Made by a program: the position numbers and the translations under genes
DNA from: a virus
Lineage: Duplodnaviria > Caudoviricetes
Virus record (IMG/VR): IMGVR_UViG_3300043754_000129
Coordinates: 32,001-96,000 of that record
DNA length: 64,000 bases
Reading direction: 5' to 3' (one strand)
Part shown: piece after piece, positions 18,043 through 50,215 of the stretch
How positions within the stretch are numbered: position 1 is the first letter of the stretch
Layout: every line of letters begins with the position of its first letter
The notes under the pieces: model-generated
What the model was told of the DNA's origin: nothing
Databases searched by the model: none
The model's input: only the letters and a program-made list of their open reading frames with translations

Positions 18043-18504
18043 ATGATCGTAACAACGCAAGTGGAAGACATCTTGACGTCCCCTGCTCAGACTCTCATTC
18101 TGCCGTGTAACACGGTGGGAGCGCTTGGTGCAGGCCTTGCCAAGAAGTTCAAAGAGAAGTGGCCAGAGATTGAATGGCCGTATAAGTATCAGTGCCAGAC
18201 GTTCCAGTTGGAATCGAATGGCCTGTATTGCTATCGACTGAAGACCAAGCTGCCCAAGCAGATTCTGTTCTTCCCAACCAAGAAGCACTGGAAACATCCC
18301 TCGAAGTTGCACTACATCGAGAAAGGACTTCTGAAGTTGGTGAAGGACTATGAGCGGTATGGGATCACGTCGTTGGCAGTGCCTATGCTCGGTTGCGGGC
18401 TTGGGCAATTGGAATGGGAAGATGTGTATCCGATGATCTTGGAGCACTTGGACCCGTTGCCAATTCCGGTGCGCATTTGTTTGTCGCCGGAGAAGCAATG
18501 GTAG
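18043..18504 (+). CDS. Macrodomain protein, DarG/TARG1-like ADP-ribose glycohydrolase
   Basis: PCNTVGALGAGLA, FPTKKHW and AVPMLGCGLGQLEW match the DarG-type macrodomain signature. Confidence 0.82.
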   Translation: MIVTTQVEDILTSPAQTLILPCNTVGALGAGLAKKFKEKWPEIEWPYKYQCQTFQLESNGLYCYRLKTKLPKQILFFPTKKHWKHPSKLHYIEKGLLKLVKDYERYGITSLAVPMLGCGLGQLEWEDVYPMILEHLDPLPIPVRICLSPEKQW

Positions 18505-18572
18505 TACGGTAGGACCTTAATGGTGGGGGTGGTGGGATTCGAAACTTTTCCATCCACATTAAGGGTTTCGAA

Positions 18573-19139
18573 ATGAAGAAGATTGTCTCGCTGTTTTGCC
18601 GTAACTGGGAAGTACGTGAAGCCGACGGTGGTCACCTGGTCAAGAACGAGGTGATGGCAGAAGCGGAATGGGTCGTGAAGGGAGAGGGTGTCGCCACTCG
18701 TAAGTGGGACGGTGTCGCGGTGCTGGTTCAGGACGGGCGCGTGTTCATGCGCTTTGATCTGAAGTCGGGACGCCAAGTGCCTGAAGGTTTTCTCCCGGCT
18801 CAGGATGCTCCGGATCCCAAGACTGGCCACTGGCCGGGCTGGGTGCCTGCTGATACGCCGGCTGGCAAGTACGTCATGGAAGCGGTGAACAAGGCGGGCG
18901 TGGTAGCTGACGGAACGTACGAAGTGTGTGGGCCGAAGATTGGGACGCGTCATGGCGCCAATCCCGAGAAGCTGTCGGAACACGTTCTGATCCCGCATGG
19001 GAAGGATGTGATCGATGACTGTCCGCGCACCTTTGACGAACTGAAGGCGTACCTGCAAGCACGCACGATTGAAGGCATCGTCTGGCATCACCCTGATGGC
19101 CGGATGGTGAAGATCAAGAAGGCGGACTTCCCGCTGTAA
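18573..19139 (+). CDS. RNA-ligase-like nucleotidyltransferase (DUF5565-like)
   Basis: KxDG motif (TRKWDG), YEVCG, EGIVW and C-terminal VKIK correspond to ligase motifs I, III, IV and V. Confidence 0.6.
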   Translation: MKKIVSLFCRNWEVREADGGHLVKNEVMAEAEWVVKGEGVATRKWDGVAVLVQDGRVFMRFDLKSGRQVPEGFLPAQDAPDPKTGHWPGWVPADTPAGKYVMEAVNKAGVVADGTYEVCGPKIGTRHGANPEKLSEHVLIPHGKDVIDDCPRTFDELKAYLQARTIEGIVWHHPDGRMVKIKKADFPL

Positions 19140-19159: not shown

Positions 19160-19196
19160 GCATAAGCGCCCCGGGTTTCCCCGGGGCTTTATGCCG
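19160..19196. terminator. Bidirectional hairpin terminator
   Basis: GCCCCGGG-TTTC-CCCGGGGC followed by TTTATGCCG, between convergent genes. Confidence 0.75.
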
Positions 19197-19201
19197 TTGG
19201 C

Positions 19202-19609
19202 TTATTCAGCCAGCAACTGCTCGAGCGTTACCGCTCCGCCGTTTCCTTCGGGCTCCTCGTACTGACGCATCGGGTAGCCCTTCGGTACAACGTGCAACGG
19301 CTCGCTACGGTCGTAGCACTTACCGCTCCAGTCCCACGACCAGGACATGTCACAGAAGGCCGCCATGCCGTTCTCCGGGCCTGCGTAACGGAAGACCGGA
19401 ATCCATTCCTCCGTCTCCCGCACGTAACGCCACTGGCTTTCCGACGCGCCCGGAACAGCCAGGAATTCCTCCGGCTGCAAATGGGTGTTTTGGATTACCA
19501 CTTGACGCCCAGCGATTTCACCCATAAGGCATTCGCTGTCACGCAGGTAGAGAGTTTGAATCTCTGCGAGCGTGTACACCTGCCCTGCCTTCGGATAAAT
19601 CTTTGTCAT
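19202..19609 (-). CDS. Hypothetical protein
   Basis: 135-aa ORF with AAGGAGG RBS. Confidence 0.65.
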   Translation of the reverse strand: MTKIYPKAGQVYTLAEIQTLYLRDSECLMGEIAGRQVVIQNTHLQPEEFLAVPGASESQWRYVRETEEWIPVFRYAGPENGMAAFCDMSWSWDWSGKCYDRSEPLHVVPKGYPMRQYEEPEGNGGAVTLEQLLAE

Positions 19610-19633: not shown

Positions 19634-21364
19634 TTAATTCCAGCGATCGAAGCCCGAACGCGGGCCCGGACCGTAAGACTGACCTTGAAACGGTTGACGG
19701 AAGAGTCCGCTTTCTTGTGCACCCATCGCTGCTTGCGAAGCGAACGGGTAGTCCGGCGTCCACGCCTGCGGCTTTTGCGGCACCCGCACCGCGAAGCCTG
19801 CATCACGCAGACCGTTACGCAGTGCATTGATGAAGCTCGCACCGAACGACACACGCGTGGCGATGTCCGTGAACTGCACCTTCCCGAGCAGGCCACGGAT
19901 CATGTCCTTGCGTTTGGCAAGCCGGACCGGCTCCGGGATCGACAGGTTCATGTAGGTCGCTGCCCAGTCTTCACTCAGACGGGGGTCACGGCCATACGTG
20001 AGCGCAGTCACCAACAACTGGTCCACATCCCGCACATCACGATGACTTCCATCGCGGTCGGCGTAGTAGCCCAACGGAATCGGATTGTTCTCCGTGAAGA
20101 CAACCTGATCGTGGCCGTTGAAGTAGTTGTTGAAACGCCCGGCACACAGGTGCTGCGCGGTGTGCAGGATGTGACTGCGTGCGGCTTCCGAACCATGGGC
20201 GGCAGCGGCCCAGACTTCGGTACGCCACGTGTCTGCCCCGGCATTGGCGATGTCCATCGAGAACACGAGGTTCGGACGGATGATGTCACGCAGCTTCTGC
20301 GCCATTTCATCCGGTTCCGCGATCACCCGGGGGAAGTCCGGCAGCAAGGCTTCCAGCCGGCTCGTGCGGGTGAGGTCCATGTTCGGATTCACCAGCGCAT
20401 CGTACCAGCTGTTGTTTTCGGTGAGCGTGCTGGCCATGCCGATCATGAGCAGCTGCATCGAGAGCAGATCCGGCGCATTGCGACCCGGCTGGATCTGGGT
20501 GATCACGAAACGCGGAATGTACTTCTTTTCCGGCATCGCAATCAGATCGACGAAGCCGCTCACTTCCCCGACTTCCTCCTCACGGTTGGTCGGCTGACCC
20601 GGCAGCTGACGGGCAGCGGCCGCGAGGGTGAGTGTCACATCGCGCCGCACCGGCTGGCCGAACGAGTCGACAGCATGCGCAACCTGCGTCGACAGGTAGT
20701 CCGTACGCAACGAGTACACGCCGCGATCTTCGATGTCGCCCAGACAGATTTCGTTCGGACCATCCGTCTGATCGACCAACGCCGTGGTGGCCGCCATCGC
20801 GATGTTGTACGCCACGCGATTGAAGATCAGCGGGTCTTCCAGATTCAGACCGCGGAAGAGCACGCAGGGGGCGGCGTCGAAGAACGTCGTGTTGGGCAGC
20901 TTGTTGGCGAGCACTTCACGGACGATGGTCTGGTAGGTGCGATCGTACACTTCGCCAAGCGAGCGCTCGGTCTCGATACGCAGGCCCTGGTAGTTGATGG
21001 AGTCGGTGCGGGTTTGCAGGATGGACTCTTCCGTCTCGATCATCACGAGTTGGTAGCCCATGCCAGCTTCAGGCTTGTCGCTCTTCATCGCCAGAACAGC
21101 CAAGGCGGGCACGAGGAGGTGCTCATGCGTGATGGGTATCAGCGTGAACACGAAGTCCGTGCTGGCCTTCTCCAGGGCCTTAGCGAGCAGGTTCTGGAAC
21201 TTCTCGAGTTCCGGGTGGCTCGGCTTGAGCGACTCGAACAGACCGCTGCGCGCATCGAAGAACGAACGCGGGCCACGGGTCTTCTTGTCGCCCTCTTCAC
21301 GGGCACGACGGAATGCATCACCCATGCCGGCCGGATCTGCGCTGTGGTTTTCGTTGATTGCCAT
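19634..21364 (-). CDS. Chimallin paralog (second phage nuclear shell-like protein)
   Basis: Colinear by-eye similarity to 48003-49943: MGDAF/MGAAF, TLIPI, KKYIPRFVIT/KKYVPRFVIT, ENNPIPLGYYADRDG/ENNRIHLGYFIGRDG, VRLAKRK, SGFDRWN/SGFSRWG. AAGGAG RBS. Confidence 0.88.
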   Translation of the reverse strand: MAINENHSADPAGMGDAFRRAREEGDKKTRGPRSFFDARSGLFESLKPSHPELEKFQNLLAKALEKASTDFVFTLIPITHEHLLVPALAVLAMKSDKPEAGMGYQLVMIETEESILQTRTDSINYQGLRIETERSLGEVYDRTYQTIVREVLANKLPNTTFFDAAPCVLFRGLNLEDPLIFNRVAYNIAMAATTALVDQTDGPNEICLGDIEDRGVYSLRTDYLSTQVAHAVDSFGQPVRRDVTLTLAAAARQLPGQPTNREEEVGEVSGFVDLIAMPEKKYIPRFVITQIQPGRNAPDLLSMQLLMIGMASTLTENNSWYDALVNPNMDLTRTSRLEALLPDFPRVIAEPDEMAQKLRDIIRPNLVFSMDIANAGADTWRTEVWAAAAHGSEAARSHILHTAQHLCAGRFNNYFNGHDQVVFTENNPIPLGYYADRDGSHRDVRDVDQLLVTALTYGRDPRLSEDWAATYMNLSIPEPVRLAKRKDMIRGLLGKVQFTDIATRVSFGASFINALRNGLRDAGFAVRVPQKPQAWTPDYPFASQAAMGAQESGLFRQPFQGQSYGPGPRSGFDRWN

Positions 21365-21396
21365 GTGGAATTCTCCTTGGTTTGCTGTTGGTGGTT

Positions 21397-22116
21397 TTAA
21401 CGCGGGGTGAGCACTTCGTTGGGGTAACGCTCACTGTGATCGACTTTGCCTTCTGCGTAGGCAATACCGAAGGCCGTGACGCGGATCTCCTCGCCGCACG
21501 GGTTGGTATCGTCATCGCAGACTTGCGGAGTCGGCTCGAGCGTGCCCGGGTAGAAACGCTCGATCCACAGACGACGGTTGCAGTCGCAGGAGAAGTTGTT
21601 TTCCTCCCAGTCGAAGATCACCGTGTCGAGCGGATAGCCGTAGCTGTACTCCTTGCGCACGTCGTACTCTTTGCCCTTGTACTTGAGCGTCACAAGGGCT
21701 ACGGGGCGCTTGGTGACGTTCTCGCCTTCACGCTCATCGAGCTTCAGGTCGGGCTTGACGAGCGGCGCCAGCAGCTGTTTAATGCGGTCCTTGTAGACAT
21801 CACGCTCTTCCTTCGTATCGAAGGCGCGCACGTACACTTCCTTGCCGTACTCGATGCCGTTGGGTTCGCCCATCTGCTTGCGGAAGATGGCGAGCTCAAT
21901 CACTTCCCCGGAGATCACGAGGCCGTAACCAGCCTTCTCCGGGATCTTGTCATCGTTGTACGGACACTGCTGGTGCATCTTCGCCCAGAGCTGCTCTTCC
22001 GTGAGTTCGGCAGGCGGCTTCTTGATCCCTTCGACCGCCTCATGAGCGGCGTGAGCGATCATCTTGCCGTAGGGCGTGGTGTCGAGGAAATTGAAACCGT
22101 TGTAACCGTTCTTCAT
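21397..22116 (-). CDS. Hypothetical protein, possible Cys metal site
   Basis: 239 aa; SCDCNR...VC...PC near the C-terminus; AAGGAG RBS. Confidence 0.7.
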   Translation of the reverse strand: MKNGYNGFNFLDTTPYGKMIAHAAHEAVEGIKKPPAELTEEQLWAKMHQQCPYNDDKIPEKAGYGLVISGEVIELAIFRKQMGEPNGIEYGKEVYVRAFDTKEERDVYKDRIKQLLAPLVKPDLKLDEREGENVTKRPVALVTLKYKGKEYDVRKEYSYGYPLDTVIFDWEENNFSCDCNRRLWIERFYPGTLEPTPQVCDDDTNPCGEEIRVTAFGIAYAEGKVDHSERYPNEVLTPR

Positions 22117-22706: not shown

Positions 22707-22787
22707 GGATTACTACTCCTTGGTTTGAAGTTATAGACTACAAAGAAAAGGCATACTGGCCTGGGACGTACCCAGGCCGGTAGGTCT

Positions 22788-24125: not shown

Positions 24126-24205
24126 TGTCCTGCTCCTTTGTTGGTTTAGAGTATTAAGTCTGCTACTAGACTCAGTAGCGTTATATAGGTCTGAGTTCTG
24201 TTTGA

Positions 24206-24631
24206 CTAGAACTTGGCCTGCATCATCAGTGCCGCTTGAGCAAAGAGACGCTCCACCACAATCGGGTCCGCCTCCTTGTAGCGCTGCATGTGCTCGAGAT
24301 ACAGGTTGTTGCGCTCACCCAGATTAAGCTCGGTGGAAAAGACCACCGAGTAATCCACGCCCACATCCTTGACACCGGACGTATCGGAGATGACAGCGTT
24401 GATGACAATGCTGGGAACGAGCGGTGCAAGCGAGCCGGAAGTCTGCACTTCCACGATCTTGCGAAACACCAACACGTCACTCACGACCTTCCCGTGCAGT
24501 GCCAGCACCCCCGGCATCTGACAGGGGCGCACGAGATAGCCGGCATGCGCGAGTACCCGATAACCTTCCGGGAACTGCTCGCGCAGCCGAGCATCTTCCA
24601 TGTTGATGGCAACTTTCTCGTTCTTATCCAT
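24206..24631 (-). CDS. Hypothetical protein
   Basis: 141 aa; start overlaps the upstream stop (TGATG). Confidence 0.6.
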   Translation of the reverse strand: MDKNEKVAINMEDARLREQFPEGYRVLAHAGYLVRPCQMPGVLALHGKVVSDVLVFRKIVEVQTSGSLAPLVPSIVINAVISDTSGVKDVGVDYSVVFSTELNLGERNNLYLEHMQRYKEADPIVVERLFAQAALMMQAKF

Positions 24632-24936
24632 CAGGGCAGACCCCGCGTGATTTCGTCTACACGACGCAGAGCACGCTTAAGCGTCTGCGCGTCTGCATAC
24701 ACGGTGTTGTTGCCCATGACGTCGAGTGTGACATCCACATTGTCCTTGAAGACGCGGATGTCCGAGCGTACCAGGTCTTCGCAGCAACCCGCCGAGTCGT
24801 CACACGAGATGCTGATCTCGAAACCCTTGTGGGGAATCCGCAGGCAGATATTGGCCAGCGCTGTGCGCGACTTGTCGACGTCGCTCGTTTTGTGGTGGTG
24901 AAACTGGGTGCCGCCGCGCGGTACGTAAATGCTCAT
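24631..24936 (-). CDS. Hypothetical protein
   Basis: 101 aa; coupled to both neighbours. Confidence 0.6.
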   Translation of the reverse strand: MSIYVPRGGTQFHHHKTSDVDKSRTALANICLRIPHKGFEISISCDDSAGCCEDLVRSDIRVFKDNVDVTLDVMGNNTVYADAQTLKRALRRVDEITRGLP

Positions 24937-25430
24937 GCCTGTTCTCCTTGGTTCTTGGGGGTTTCGCCGAGTTCGCTCAGAAGGTTCATGTAGTCCAGAT
25001 CACGCAGATCCTTCTTCACGCCTTCCGAGTTGACGGCGTAAGCGAAGTGGATGTCGCTTTGCAGCTTGGCCTTGGGGTGACGGAGCTTCTTCGGCACGCC
25101 CACGCGCAGCATCTGCAACTCCGCCTTGATGTTAAAGCGCAGCAGATCGCCGTTGAGCGAACGCGGCACATCCGAATGGGCCGACTCCGCATCATGCAAG
25201 CGAGCGCGCCGCAATGCCACCTTCATCTTGAGCGAACCACGCTTGAGGATACGCTCTTGACGCTTGAGGCTGACCATCGGGAAGATGACCTTGCTCAAGT
25301 CGTGGACGGGGATTTCCAGCGACTTGGCTTGCTCATAGACATCGGCCGACATGATCAGCCCGTCTTCTGCGGTGAGAATCTTCGCATTCGCGAGCATCTC
25401 ATCCTTGATGTTGCCGTATTCCTTGGCCAT
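24933..25430 (-). CDS. Hypothetical protein
   Basis: 165 aa with AAGGAG RBS. Confidence 0.65.
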   Translation of the reverse strand: MAKEYGNIKDEMLANAKILTAEDGLIMSADVYEQAKSLEIPVHDLSKVIFPMVSLKRQERILKRGSLKMKVALRRARLHDAESAHSDVPRSLNGDLLRFNIKAELQMLRVGVPKKLRHPKAKLQSDIHFAYAVNSEGVKKDLRDLDYMNLLSELGETPKNQGEQA

Positions 25431-25455
25431 GCTTAAGACTCCTTGGTTTGATGTT

Positions 25456-26064
25456 TTAGATGCGCACTTGTTCCTGAATCAGCACGCGTTTGGCCAGCAC
25501 CTTCTCACGACGCGAGCCGTGACGCAGGATGCGCGCCAGTTGGTAATCGGTCCGGATGCGCGGCAGGACGTCTTGAAACACCTTGCCGCTCTTGTTCCAA
25601 CCACGCTCGAACGGCAGCTTGCCCTTGTCGTCCGCCCAGAGAATCTGGTACACACGCACAGGACCATAGCGTCGCTTAGCACCCATCACGTACTTGACCC
25701 GCGTGTATTGCCAAGTGACGTCACGGATGAAGATCGGCACGTTGAAAAGGTCGGTACGCAGACCCATCTTCACGCCACCATTCTTGCGCATTTCGTCGGC
25801 GAGCGTGCAGATGATCATCTGCTTGTTCTGCGCCGCCAGGTTTCCCGTCATGATGAATTCGGGCAACTGAAGCTTACCCAGGCCGATCGAGTAGGTGAAG
25901 CCGCTACCCTTCTTGCCCTTGCCCGGGAACACGTTCATGTGGGTGTGACCGTGCTTCTCGATCAATGCGTCGAGGTCCGCATGAATCCGGCGAATGCGCT
26001 CTTGCATGGGGAGTGCAAGCCAAGCTGCGCGTTCTTCTTCGTTCATTTCGTTGATGTTGTTCAT
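25456..26064 (-). CDS. DUF4262-like protein
   Basis: GFTYSIGL...LPEFIMTG...QILWADDKGKLPFE pattern. Confidence 0.65.
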   Translation of the reverse strand: MNNINEMNEEERAAWLALPMQERIRRIHADLDALIEKHGHTHMNVFPGKGKKGSGFTYSIGLGKLQLPEFIMTGNLAAQNKQMIICTLADEMRKNGGVKMGLRTDLFNVPIFIRDVTWQYTRVKYVMGAKRRYGPVRVYQILWADDKGKLPFERGWNKSGKVFQDVLPRIRTDYQLARILRHGSRREKVLAKRVLIQEQVRI

Positions 26065-48002: not shown

Positions 48003-49943
48003 TTAACCCCAGCGGCTGAAGCCCGAACGGTTGCCGAAGTTGCCTTGCGGCTGGCCCTGGTAGCCGCGGTTGAACACGCCCGAGTTGTAGCCCATGGTGT
48101 CCAGCGCAGCGTGCGCGACGTACGGGTTGACCGCACGTTCGTAGCTTTGCAGATCCGCGTACGGAGCGATCGTACGCACTTGCAGGCCGACGTCCTTCAC
48201 GGCTTGCGTGAGAGCGTTGACGAAGTCCGGCTCGAAAGTCACGCGACGCGCGAAGCCTTCGATGTGAACGTTCTGCTTGCCGAGGATGCCCTCGATGATC
48301 TGCTTGCGCTTGGCCAGGCGCACTTCGAGCGGGATGCCCGTGAGTGCGTACGAATCCGACCATTCGCGCGCCAGTTCCGGATCGCGATCGCCGACCATGT
48401 TCAGCACGGCCAGGTAATCGACTTCGCGCAGGTCGTGCTTCAGACCGTCACGACCGATGAAGTAACCCAGGTGGATGCGGTTGTTTTCATCGATGATGAT
48501 GCGCGTGCCCGGTGCCAGGTAGTTCGACAGGCGGCCGTTCGTCAGCTTGTTCGCTTCGTCGTAGATGTACTGCGACGCTGCTGCGCTTGCTGCGTTCGAC
48601 TGCTCGCCGGCTGCGGCGAAGACGCTGGAGATCCAGGTCGTCGGGCCTGCTTCGGGGATGTCCATCGACAGGAGCAGCTTCGGCTGGAACACCGATGCCA
48701 CCAGACGCAGGAGGAAGTCGCCCTGCATGTTGTTCGTACGCTGGAATGCGTCCGACTTCGTGTCGATGCGCGAGCCGAAGCCCGTGGTGTTGCCTTCGAA
48801 GTTCGCTTCGATGCCGACGGCGCCGATGTCCTTCCAGTCGATACCGTCTTGCACGACCGGCGACGGACGGAACGCTTCGACCCAGCCGTTCTGTTCACGC
48901 AGCGTGAACGCCGTGACCAGTGCGAGCAGCTGAGCGCGGATCGACAGCACGTTCTGCGAGTCGAGATCGGTGATCACGAAACGCGGCACGTACTTCTTGT
49001 ACGCGTCCGGCGACTGCTGTTGCTGAACTTGCGGCACCCATGCGTTGAACGCCTGAGCTTGCGAGATGGCCGGGGCCCACACGAGGTCCATGTAGCCAGC
49101 CACGCGAGCGAGCGTCTTCACGCGCGACGTGACACCTTGCTGACCCGGCACCGGCTGGCCGCCGATACGGAAGTCGATGACGATGTCCGAGCGGATCGGC
49201 GAGCCGACGATGTCTTCGGTCGGTGCGTTGTTGAACGACGACTGAACCGTCAGCGTGTTGTCCTGCTCGATGTTGCCCAGCTCGATGTCCGGGAAGCCGG
49301 CCAGACGAGCGAGTTCCGTCGAACCTGCGAGCACGGCGTTCGCCGCCAGGTTGTACAGGCGCTTCTTGTTCGTCACGTCGAACGTGCTCGGCACGACTTC
49401 AGCGTCAACCGGATGCAGTGCCAGGCCCGGGAAGGCGCGCGACACCCATTCGCGAACTTCGTTCTGGAAGACCGGCGTGTACACGTCGCCCGTGGTGCGC
49501 GTGACTTCGATCTGGTTGTTGCCGATCTGCTGCATTTGCGACTGGATCGGTTCGCTCGAGCCGTCGAGGATCAGGGTGTGGTACGCCACGCCGAGTTCCT
49601 TCGCGTTCTTGTTCGACACTGCAACGACGATCGCCGACTTTTCCAGAGTGCGGGTCTGATCGAGGTCGATGGGGATGAGCGTCACGTCGTACTCGCTACG
49701 CACCGCTTCCTCGTACACGCCCTTCAGGGCCGCGTTGAGGGTGCTGATGATATCGCTTTCCGGCGAGCGCGACATGGCGTTCGGGTTGGCCGACCAGAAG
49801 TCAGCGAGGCGCTGACGATGCTGACCGCGCGGGGCTTGCTGATAGCCGCCTTGCGTGCCAGCGTCCTGGCGTTGCTGGGCGCCAGCGAATGCTGCACCCA
49901 TCGTCGTTTGCGACTGGCCGTTGTCTTCGGATTTCACTGCCAT
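48003..49943 (-). CDS. chmA: Chimallin, major phage nuclear shell protein
   Basis: 646 aa, immediately upstream of the gp55-like RNAP subunit (canonical chmA locus), with its own promoter and terminator, flexible N- and C-terminal segments and PRFVIT / ENNRIHLGY motifs. Confidence 0.88.
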   Translation of the reverse strand: MAVKSEDNGQSQTTMGAAFAGAQQRQDAGTQGGYQQAPRGQHRQRLADFWSANPNAMSRSPESDIISTLNAALKGVYEEAVRSEYDVTLIPIDLDQTRTLEKSAIVVAVSNKNAKELGVAYHTLILDGSSEPIQSQMQQIGNNQIEVTRTTGDVYTPVFQNEVREWVSRAFPGLALHPVDAEVVPSTFDVTNKKRLYNLAANAVLAGSTELARLAGFPDIELGNIEQDNTLTVQSSFNNAPTEDIVGSPIRSDIVIDFRIGGQPVPGQQGVTSRVKTLARVAGYMDLVWAPAISQAQAFNAWVPQVQQQQSPDAYKKYVPRFVITDLDSQNVLSIRAQLLALVTAFTLREQNGWVEAFRPSPVVQDGIDWKDIGAVGIEANFEGNTTGFGSRIDTKSDAFQRTNNMQGDFLLRLVASVFQPKLLLSMDIPEAGPTTWISSVFAAAGEQSNAASAAASQYIYDEANKLTNGRLSNYLAPGTRIIIDENNRIHLGYFIGRDGLKHDLREVDYLAVLNMVGDRDPELAREWSDSYALTGIPLEVRLAKRKQIIEGILGKQNVHIEGFARRVTFEPDFVNALTQAVKDVGLQVRTIAPYADLQSYERAVNPYVAHAALDTMGYNSGVFNRGYQGQPQGNFGNRSGFSRWG

Positions 49944-50018
49944 GATTTCGTTTCCTTCTCGTTTAAACTGAGTTAATGATCGCGCGAAACACTATACTCT
50001 TGCTACAGTGTCAAGATA

Positions 50019-50026
50019 GTGATATG
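50019..50026 (-). promoter_or_regulatory. Candidate early promoter CATATCAC
   Basis: Variant of TATATTAC about 75 nt upstream of chmA. Confidence 0.45.
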
Positions 50027-50215
50027 TGTCCATTTTTCGATTGGATCACACCCACTCCTGCGCGAACTCGCTTGGGTGAAACAGACTGCAAAAACAAACA
50101 AAGGGAATTACGGGGTGTTTTTGCTGACCCCGAACTCACGCTCGTAGTCAGGAAAGGAAGTGTTTCATTCCTTCTATAAGATAAGGGTGGTGCAGTTATT
50201 TTTTTACCGCATCAC

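Follow-up and report, generated by a model that had tools for sequence, protein, structure and literature searches.

The genome of an uncultured jumbo phage from soil encodes, in addition to its canonical chimallin (ChmA), a second and strongly diverged chimallin that is missing two segments corresponding to pore-lining parts of a characterized phage nuclear shell. This second gene is an exchanged, hypervariable cassette among related phages. It is also a genuine gene under maintenance, given that its clade has 12 intact members and that six alleles occupy one syntenic slot. We tentatively favor the view that its product is a low-abundance accessory subunit of the shell lattice, with altered pores, that has been diversified by conflict. 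The window referred to throughout is the 64,000-nucleotide stretch of DNA that was analyzed, which corresponds to bases 32001 to 96000 of an IMG/VR record of 323,678 bp with a completeness rating of 100%. The features discussed are listed in Table 1. IMG/VR classifies this 324-kb chimallin jumbo phage as a "provirus," which is probably an artifact, and the protein collection also has these genes, on a contig of 326,938 bp.

Table 1. Positions in the window of the two chimallin genes and of the features associated with them.
Feature	Position	Strand	Details and basis
Second chimallin gene	19634..21364	-	Intact ORF, 576 aa; ATG start, AAGGAG 8 nt upstream
Likely NTS equivalent, residues ~30-50, directly before first core helix	21215..21277	-	Alignment with ChmA pre-core segment
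Deletion site 1, between E279 and K280	20525..20530	-	ChmA 293-315 (23 residues) missing; alignment
Deletion site 2, between T335 and R336	20357..20362	-	ChmA 367-388 (22 residues, D-I-G-A-x-G-I-E-A-N block) missing; alignment
C-terminal tail, residues 533-576	19637..19768	-	CTS1-like S-G-L-F-R-x-P and CTS2-like R-S-G-F-D-R-W; disordered in model, like chimallin arms
Spacer, 32 nt	21365..21396	-	AAGGAG at 21378-21373; sequence
239-aa gene, upstream and co-directional	21397..22116	-	ORF; no Pfam or PHROG match
135-aa gene, downstream	19202..19609	-	ORF; within variable cassette and low-identity DNA block
GC-rich terminator-like hairpin between convergent units	19168..19187	-	Scan; 8 G-C pairs, then T-rich tail
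Macro-domain and RNA-ligase genes, convergent, bounding cassette	18043..19139	+	PF01661; PF17720, phrog_14301
Canonical chmA of the same phage	48003..49943	-	646 aa; PF25677 1.5e-45; phrog_4795 2.3e-97; AF2 pLDDT 85.9
chmA leader, 272 nt	49944..50215	-	Sequence; no counterpart at second gene

The original prediction described the second gene as a chimallin paralog that can be aligned with ChmA from end to end, and this was borne out by sequence, profile, and structure searches. With BLASTP, residues 1-575 of the 576-aa protein align with residues 1-645 of the resident ChmA (196 of 656 positions identical, or 30%; E value of 6e-71), and the core blocks quoted in the prediction are present in both proteins (KKYIPRFVIT and KKYVPRFVIT, ENNPIPLGY..RDG and ENNRIHLGY..RDG, and VRLAKRK). 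The Pfam family PF25677 (Chimallin_Phikzvirus) matches residues 352-527 only of the 576-aa protein, with 74.4 bits compared to 156 bits for ChmA and a curated cut-off of 27. The match to phrog_4795, annotated "nuclear shell protein," covers residues 89-536 (5.5e-55). Sequence searching alone retrieves the solved chimallins at approximately 1e-15. Solved family members include 201phi2-1 gp105 (PDB 7SQQ-7SQS and 8IGG), Goslar gp189 (7SQT-7SQV), and PhiPA3 gp53 (8FNE).

An AF2 model of the 576-aa protein, computed from a 150-sequence alignment, has a mean pLDDT of 86.8 and a pTM of 0.85, with an ordered core (residues 50-530) and two disordered tails. When this model was compared with the PDB using Foldseek, the best nine matches were all chimallin chains from Goslar, 201phi2-1, and PhiPA3 (E values of 1e-25 to 1e-29; TM scores of 0.71-0.80). 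These were the only significant matches, the next having an E value of 5e-3. In the predicted structure, the two-domain chimallin fold, which consists of an alpha/beta N-terminal domain and a GNAT-like C-terminal domain, is complete. Nearly all residues that are conserved across the family are kept, and the second-chimallin and ChmA groups are alike in charge (pI of ~5.5, net charge of -10 to -19).

When 1.84 billion representatives were searched exhaustively with HMMER, 868 chimallin-family proteins were recovered, and the eleven best matches were all short (532-568 aa). Together with the window protein, these form one clade (support of 99-100 with FastTree and IQ-TREE) whose 12 members are intact and full-length, share 23 invariant columns, and come from metagenomes only. 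No member was found in cultured phages, where the best match of three clade members is the single ChmA of FLC9 (26-28% identity). In the maximum-likelihood tree, the sister of the short clade is a pair of canonical-length proteins (P0030/P0040), and the resident ChmA is placed apart in a tight clade of soil phages and Burkholderiales-type phages, among them a contig labeled Caballeronia arationis. A topology in which the short clade stands next to the resident ChmA clade is not rejected by the AU test (p = 0.095), and therefore both an ancient duplication within the lineage followed by acceleration and a capture from another phage lineage are possible origins.

Around the outer members of the short clade, no second chimallin was found within 7-10 kb of the loci (P0008, P0009, P0015, and P0016/P0207). 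Scanning metagenome contigs with the outer protein P0016 gave no match, and a search of viral contigs with an alignment of four second-chimallin alleles recovered canonical chimallins only. The gene context of the outer members, which belong to more distant phages, is quite unlike that in the window. Genes for an SNF2 helicase and a DnaB-like helicase lie near the outer loci (L016, L046, and L047), and HicB-like, RNA_pol_A_CTD-like, or Acb2/Tad1-like genes are also present.

The original prediction also noted that the second chimallin is shorter than ChmA in two places, and alignment to ChmA confirms both deletions: 23 residues are absent before KKY and 22 after the conserved Trp. The distance from a conserved Asp (in G-F-x-D) to a conserved Arg (in P-R-F), which spans the first site, amounts to exactly 11 residues in every one of the 12 short proteins and to 22-40 residues (median of 30) in 135 others, with no overlap between the two groups. 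Across the second site, 45-55 residues separate the conserved Trp from S-x-D in the short clade, compared to a median of 67 in the others, only 2 of which (of 135) have 60 or fewer. Few motifs of canonical chimallins are better conserved than the block that is lost here (D-x-x-D-I-G-A-x-G-I-E-A-N). The two segments appear in the ChmA model as a long loop and as a short helix with flanking loops, and the model of the 576-aa protein has a tight turn and a short linker instead.

When aligned via the resident ChmA, the first deletion corresponds to residues 304-321 of the 201phi2-1 chimallin and the second to A373 through approximately A387, a mapping that combines sequence alignment to a 20-25% identical structure with published simulations of this distant homolog. 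The 201phi2-1 numbering was checked against six identities given in SI Table 6 (P303, Q304, A305, A307, T309, and F311). In that protein, residues 304, 305, 307, 309, 311, 312, 317, 319, and 320 face the corner (inter-tetramer) four-fold pore (PMC9365700), and loop residues 307-319 are unresolved in the cryo-EM maps. The center (intra-tetramer) four-fold pore is faced by A373, K374, D375, K377, and D378, and for K374 this orientation holds in 8 of the 9 pores simulated (PMC9365700). Both segments that carry the pore loops of the p442 lattice (201phi2-1 residues 303-320, and 372-378 with 391 and 395) are deleted in each of the 12 short-clade proteins. This coincidence with pore-lining residues gives indirect support to the suggestion that the second gene encodes a pore or permeability variant, and it suggests that pores may be wider or differently gated wherever the short chimallin is present.

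The exchange of alleles is most directly seen by comparing metagenomic contigs of two sister phages, L015 and L048. Their DNA is 99-100% identical until 16 nt inside the second-chimallin ORF, drops to 45-55% (effectively unalignable) across this gene and the small ORFs that follow, and returns to 86-93% at the RNA-ligase gene. The encoded proteins are 99.4% and 98.3% identical for the two upstream neighbors, 90-93% identical downstream, and 36.5% identical for the second chimallin. Given that the swap boundary lies 16 nt inside the ORF, the upstream signals are common to all alleles. Comparisons with the window give a similar picture: ChmA is 91.3% and the second chimallin 42.8% identical to the counterparts on a 320,222-bp contig, and the corresponding values for a 104-kb JGI contig are 66.5% and 44.3%. 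Resident ChmA orthologs in the relatives are 66-91% identical. The divergence of the second chimallin does not track that of the phages, which indicates that alleles have been replaced by recombination and have not only evolved with a faster clock.

Allele divergence is spread along the entire second chimallin and is stronger in the N-terminal domain. Despite the turnover of alleles, the slot is filled by a chimallin-fold gene in every case, and the window allele recurs in a second soil-metagenome study, where a covering 9.2-kb contig piece is ~98% identical. Readings that involve conflict, such as a decoy or an inhibitor of competing phages, would fit this cassette-like hypervariability. A second variable island lies a few kilobases upstream (approximately 24200-26064 in the window; 5023-7137 in L015 versus 4929-7174 in L048). 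It holds small genes, including DUF4262 paralogs, and is only 28-47% identical between L015 and L048, and its flanks are 97-99% identical. The upstream island and the chimallin cassette together make this a region with several swap-prone slots.

As had been proposed, the second chimallin gene resides in an accessory region, and the whole segment of ~5 kb is missing from relatives with genomes of ~280 kb. Two of these relatives, which are complete at 285 kb and 279 kb (G007 and G010; ChmA 63% and 56% identical), lack everything from the RNA-ligase gene through the 239-aa gene and retain the neighboring 308-aa, 527-aa, 142-aa, and Macro genes. The same gene arrangement as in the window is found on metagenomic contigs L005, L006/L007, L015, and L048. 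Homologs of the 239-aa gene are located directly upstream of the second chimallin in most relatives (L006, L015, and L048), and the 135-aa gene is 68% identical in L015, and different small ORFs take its place in L048 and L006. The Macro and RNA-ligase genes share the GC-rich hairpin with the chimallin cassette, and in the 279- to 285-kb relatives the RNA-ligase gene is missing and the Macro gene is kept. A foreign base composition of the second chimallin was considered and rejected, as its GC content (61%) and GC3 (77%) are like those of its neighbors.

The spacer upstream of the second chimallin, at only 32 nt, is too short to accommodate a separate promoter. We found no recurrent promoter word common to the second-gene region and the chmA leader, and a sigma-70 scan around the second chimallin returned hits at chance level. 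Among sequencing runs, no RNA run contained the gene, which was present in soil DNA runs only. The second chimallin has no leader of its own and, from its sequence context, appears to rely for transcription on the upstream accessory operon. A hairpin with a 12-bp stem (22754-22782), located between upstream genes for 171-aa and 113-aa proteins, may bound the transcription unit that includes the second chimallin.

Chimallin tetramers and lattices are held together by terminal arms. In the 201phi2-1 protein, the NTS (residues 48-61) directly precedes the core and makes intra-tetramer contacts, CTS1 and CTS2 (residues 590-611 and 622-631) make inter-tetramer contacts, and the N-terminal tail (residues 1-47) is dispensable for assembly (PMC9365700). 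The second chimallin has a likely equivalent of the NTS at residues ~29-50, in which F35 is invariant across the 12 short-clade members. Its C-terminal tail carries S-G-L-F-R-x-P followed by a terminal R-W, with Y539, F555, and R574 conserved in the clade. At the protein level, these tail motifs resemble those of the resident ChmA, to which they are nearer than the core is. Recent gene conversion from chmA was considered as a source of the similar termini and was rejected, because DNA identity there is ~50-55%, as elsewhere in the gene. A complex prediction for the second-chimallin core (residues 47-532) with the ChmA tail (residues 588-646), run without an alignment, did not fold the core (pLDDT of 39) and thus speaks neither for nor against binding.

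The claim that the second chimallin keeps both terminal segments therefore needs amendment. The quoted blocks (MGDAF and MGAAF; SGFDRWN and SGFSRWG) are indeed present, but MGDAF is not the NTS and instead sits upstream of it in the N-terminal tail (residues 14-18), and among six alleles of the second gene it occurs only in that of the window. The broader motif M-G-x-A-F is encoded at 49899-49913 in chmA and at 21311-21325 in the second gene. It is also seen in canonical ChmAs of a broad soil clade, where M15 and A18 are invariant in 11 orthologs, and it is the consensus in a second clade of 16 members.

Both genes occur together in three genomes, namely that of the window and the two metagenomic contigs compared above (320,222 bp and 104 kb). 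Surveys of chimallin copy number agree with the expectation that duplicates are rare. No second chimallin match was obtained by tblastn in 118 chimallin-positive phage records, and when FLC9, RAY, phiKZ, Goslar, RP31, and LucasX were searched genome-wide with the profile, each proved to have one chimallin gene. Similarly, a single gene was present in each of 28 other IMG/VR chimallin records (nine of them with a completeness of 90% or more), and the genome of the window scores two in the same searches. Duplicates also go unmentioned in a core-genome study that covered 66 chimallin phages. The listing of the Serratia phage 2050HW chimallin as gp310/311/312 (SI Table 7 of PMC9365700) represents a split gene and not a set of paralogs.

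The original statement that no two-chimallin system had been described is nearly right, the exception being one sentence on a low-homology "chimallin gene duplication in variant G3" in a study of metagenomic phages from the mouth that probably infect Neisseria (PMC12625630). That case resembles ours in that a second, low-homology chimallin is present in a single chimallin-encoding metagenomic genome. It differs in phage group and habitat, and it is set apart by the extent of its description, which does not go into structure, arms, pores, synteny, or the exchange of alleles.

In the model that we tentatively favor, the second chimallin would be made in smaller amounts than ChmA and would enter the ChmA lattice via common arm-and-groove contacts, as tetramers of its own or in mixture with ChmA. 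The result would be sparse lattice sites with pores or surfaces unlike those of the bulk, and conflict, whether with shell-directed host factors or with relatives infecting the same cell, would keep the alleles divergent. Two points weigh against this accessory-subunit reading: such strong diversification is unusual in a protein that has to pack into a conserved lattice, and the outer short-clade members reside in different phages in which they might be the sole chimallin. Folded proteins are considered too large for the lattice pores, and the shell is expected to contain minor components (Laughlin et al. 2022). A bolder version, which we regard as rather unlikely, is that short-chimallin tetramers within the ChmA lattice, without the pore-constricting loops, would provide wide or gated channels for mRNA or protein, with allele turnover driven by factors from hosts or rivals that take advantage of these gates or obstruct them.

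Four less probable explanations were also considered. The second gene could be a captured chimallin that serves in competition or exclusion, either as a subunit that "poisons" or caps shells built by co-infecting relatives or as a determinant of nucleus compatibility, with alleles exchanged under frequency-dependent selection. The cassette-like replacement with sharp boundaries, the decoupling of allele divergence from phage divergence, the accessory location of the gene, and the tree that joins its clade to P0030/P0040 and sets it apart from the resident ChmA would all suit such a factor. However, arm motifs so similar to those of the resident ChmA mean that self-poisoning would have to be avoided, and the AU test does not reject a tree in which its clade is sister to that of the resident ChmA; we consider this explanation possible but unlikely. 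It is more doubtful still that the protein forms a separate homotypic structure outside the ChmA lattice, for example another compartment or a scaffold used early or late. It has kept arms and grooves of its own along with a complete fold, its identity to ChmA is only 30%, and the clade is old enough for interfaces to have diverged, but its C-terminal motifs are nearer to ChmA than the core is, and the gene lacks the strong leader of its own that is expected for a bulk structural protein.

We attach little probability to a role as a decoy or shield against a host defense that recognizes or attacks chimallin. Hypervariability and allele exchange are typical of genes in host-phage conflict, and the neighboring Macro and RNA-ligase accessory genes are of the counter-defense type. 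However, no chimallin-sensing defense is described in the literature considered, and the conserved arms and clade-wide deletions of the pore loops point to a structural role. The fast evolution of the gene and its absence from close relatives, which makes it dispensable for the lineage, might also suggest a duplicate that is functionally redundant or in decay and lacks any specific role. This explanation is very improbable in view of the intact full-length members with their invariant columns, the high-confidence model, the retention of family-wide residues, the slot that always holds a chimallin-fold gene despite allele turnover, and the ~98% identical strain in a second soil study.

Comparison with known systems places the second chimallin within the chimallin (ChmA, PhuN) family but not among ChmA orthologs. 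It shares with these proteins the PF25677 and PHROG assignments, the two-domain fold, an acidic composition, and disordered arms with conserved motifs. It differs in being ~70 residues shorter, without the corner-pore loop and the center-pore D-I-G-A-x-G block, and in being an extra copy that is carried in an accessory cassette behind a short spacer instead of a leader. It also evolves or is exchanged far faster, with 43% versus 91% identity in the same genome pair. A single-copy core locus, an own leader, and divergence at the genome rate characterize the canonical chmA gene of the window, which fills the ChmA role, and do not describe the second gene.

The shells of bacterial microcompartments combine a major subunit with minor paralogs of the same fold that have differing pores (BMC-H, BMC-T, and BMC-P). 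This is a functional analogy only, as fold and origin are unrelated, and for the phage protein co-assembly and altered pores are inferred. Minor components of the phage nucleus with proposed transport or docking functions include ChmB, PicA/Imp1, and ChmC. To our knowledge, none of these is a chimallin homolog, and all are conserved core genes and not hypervariable cassettes. The second chimallin differs from them on both counts, as a chimallin homolog in a hypervariable cassette. A need for transport and docking functions beyond the ChmA lattice has been stated previously (PMC9365700).

How macromolecules pass across the chimallin shell, and which minor components form its specialized sites, are open questions of phage-nucleus biology. 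A protein that has the chimallin fold and arm motifs but lacks both pore-lining segments is a concrete candidate for a specialized minor component of the phage nucleus. Judging from sequence and predicted structure, the cassette-like exchange of its alleles would be the first sign of diversifying, conflict-type selection acting on part of the nuclear shell.
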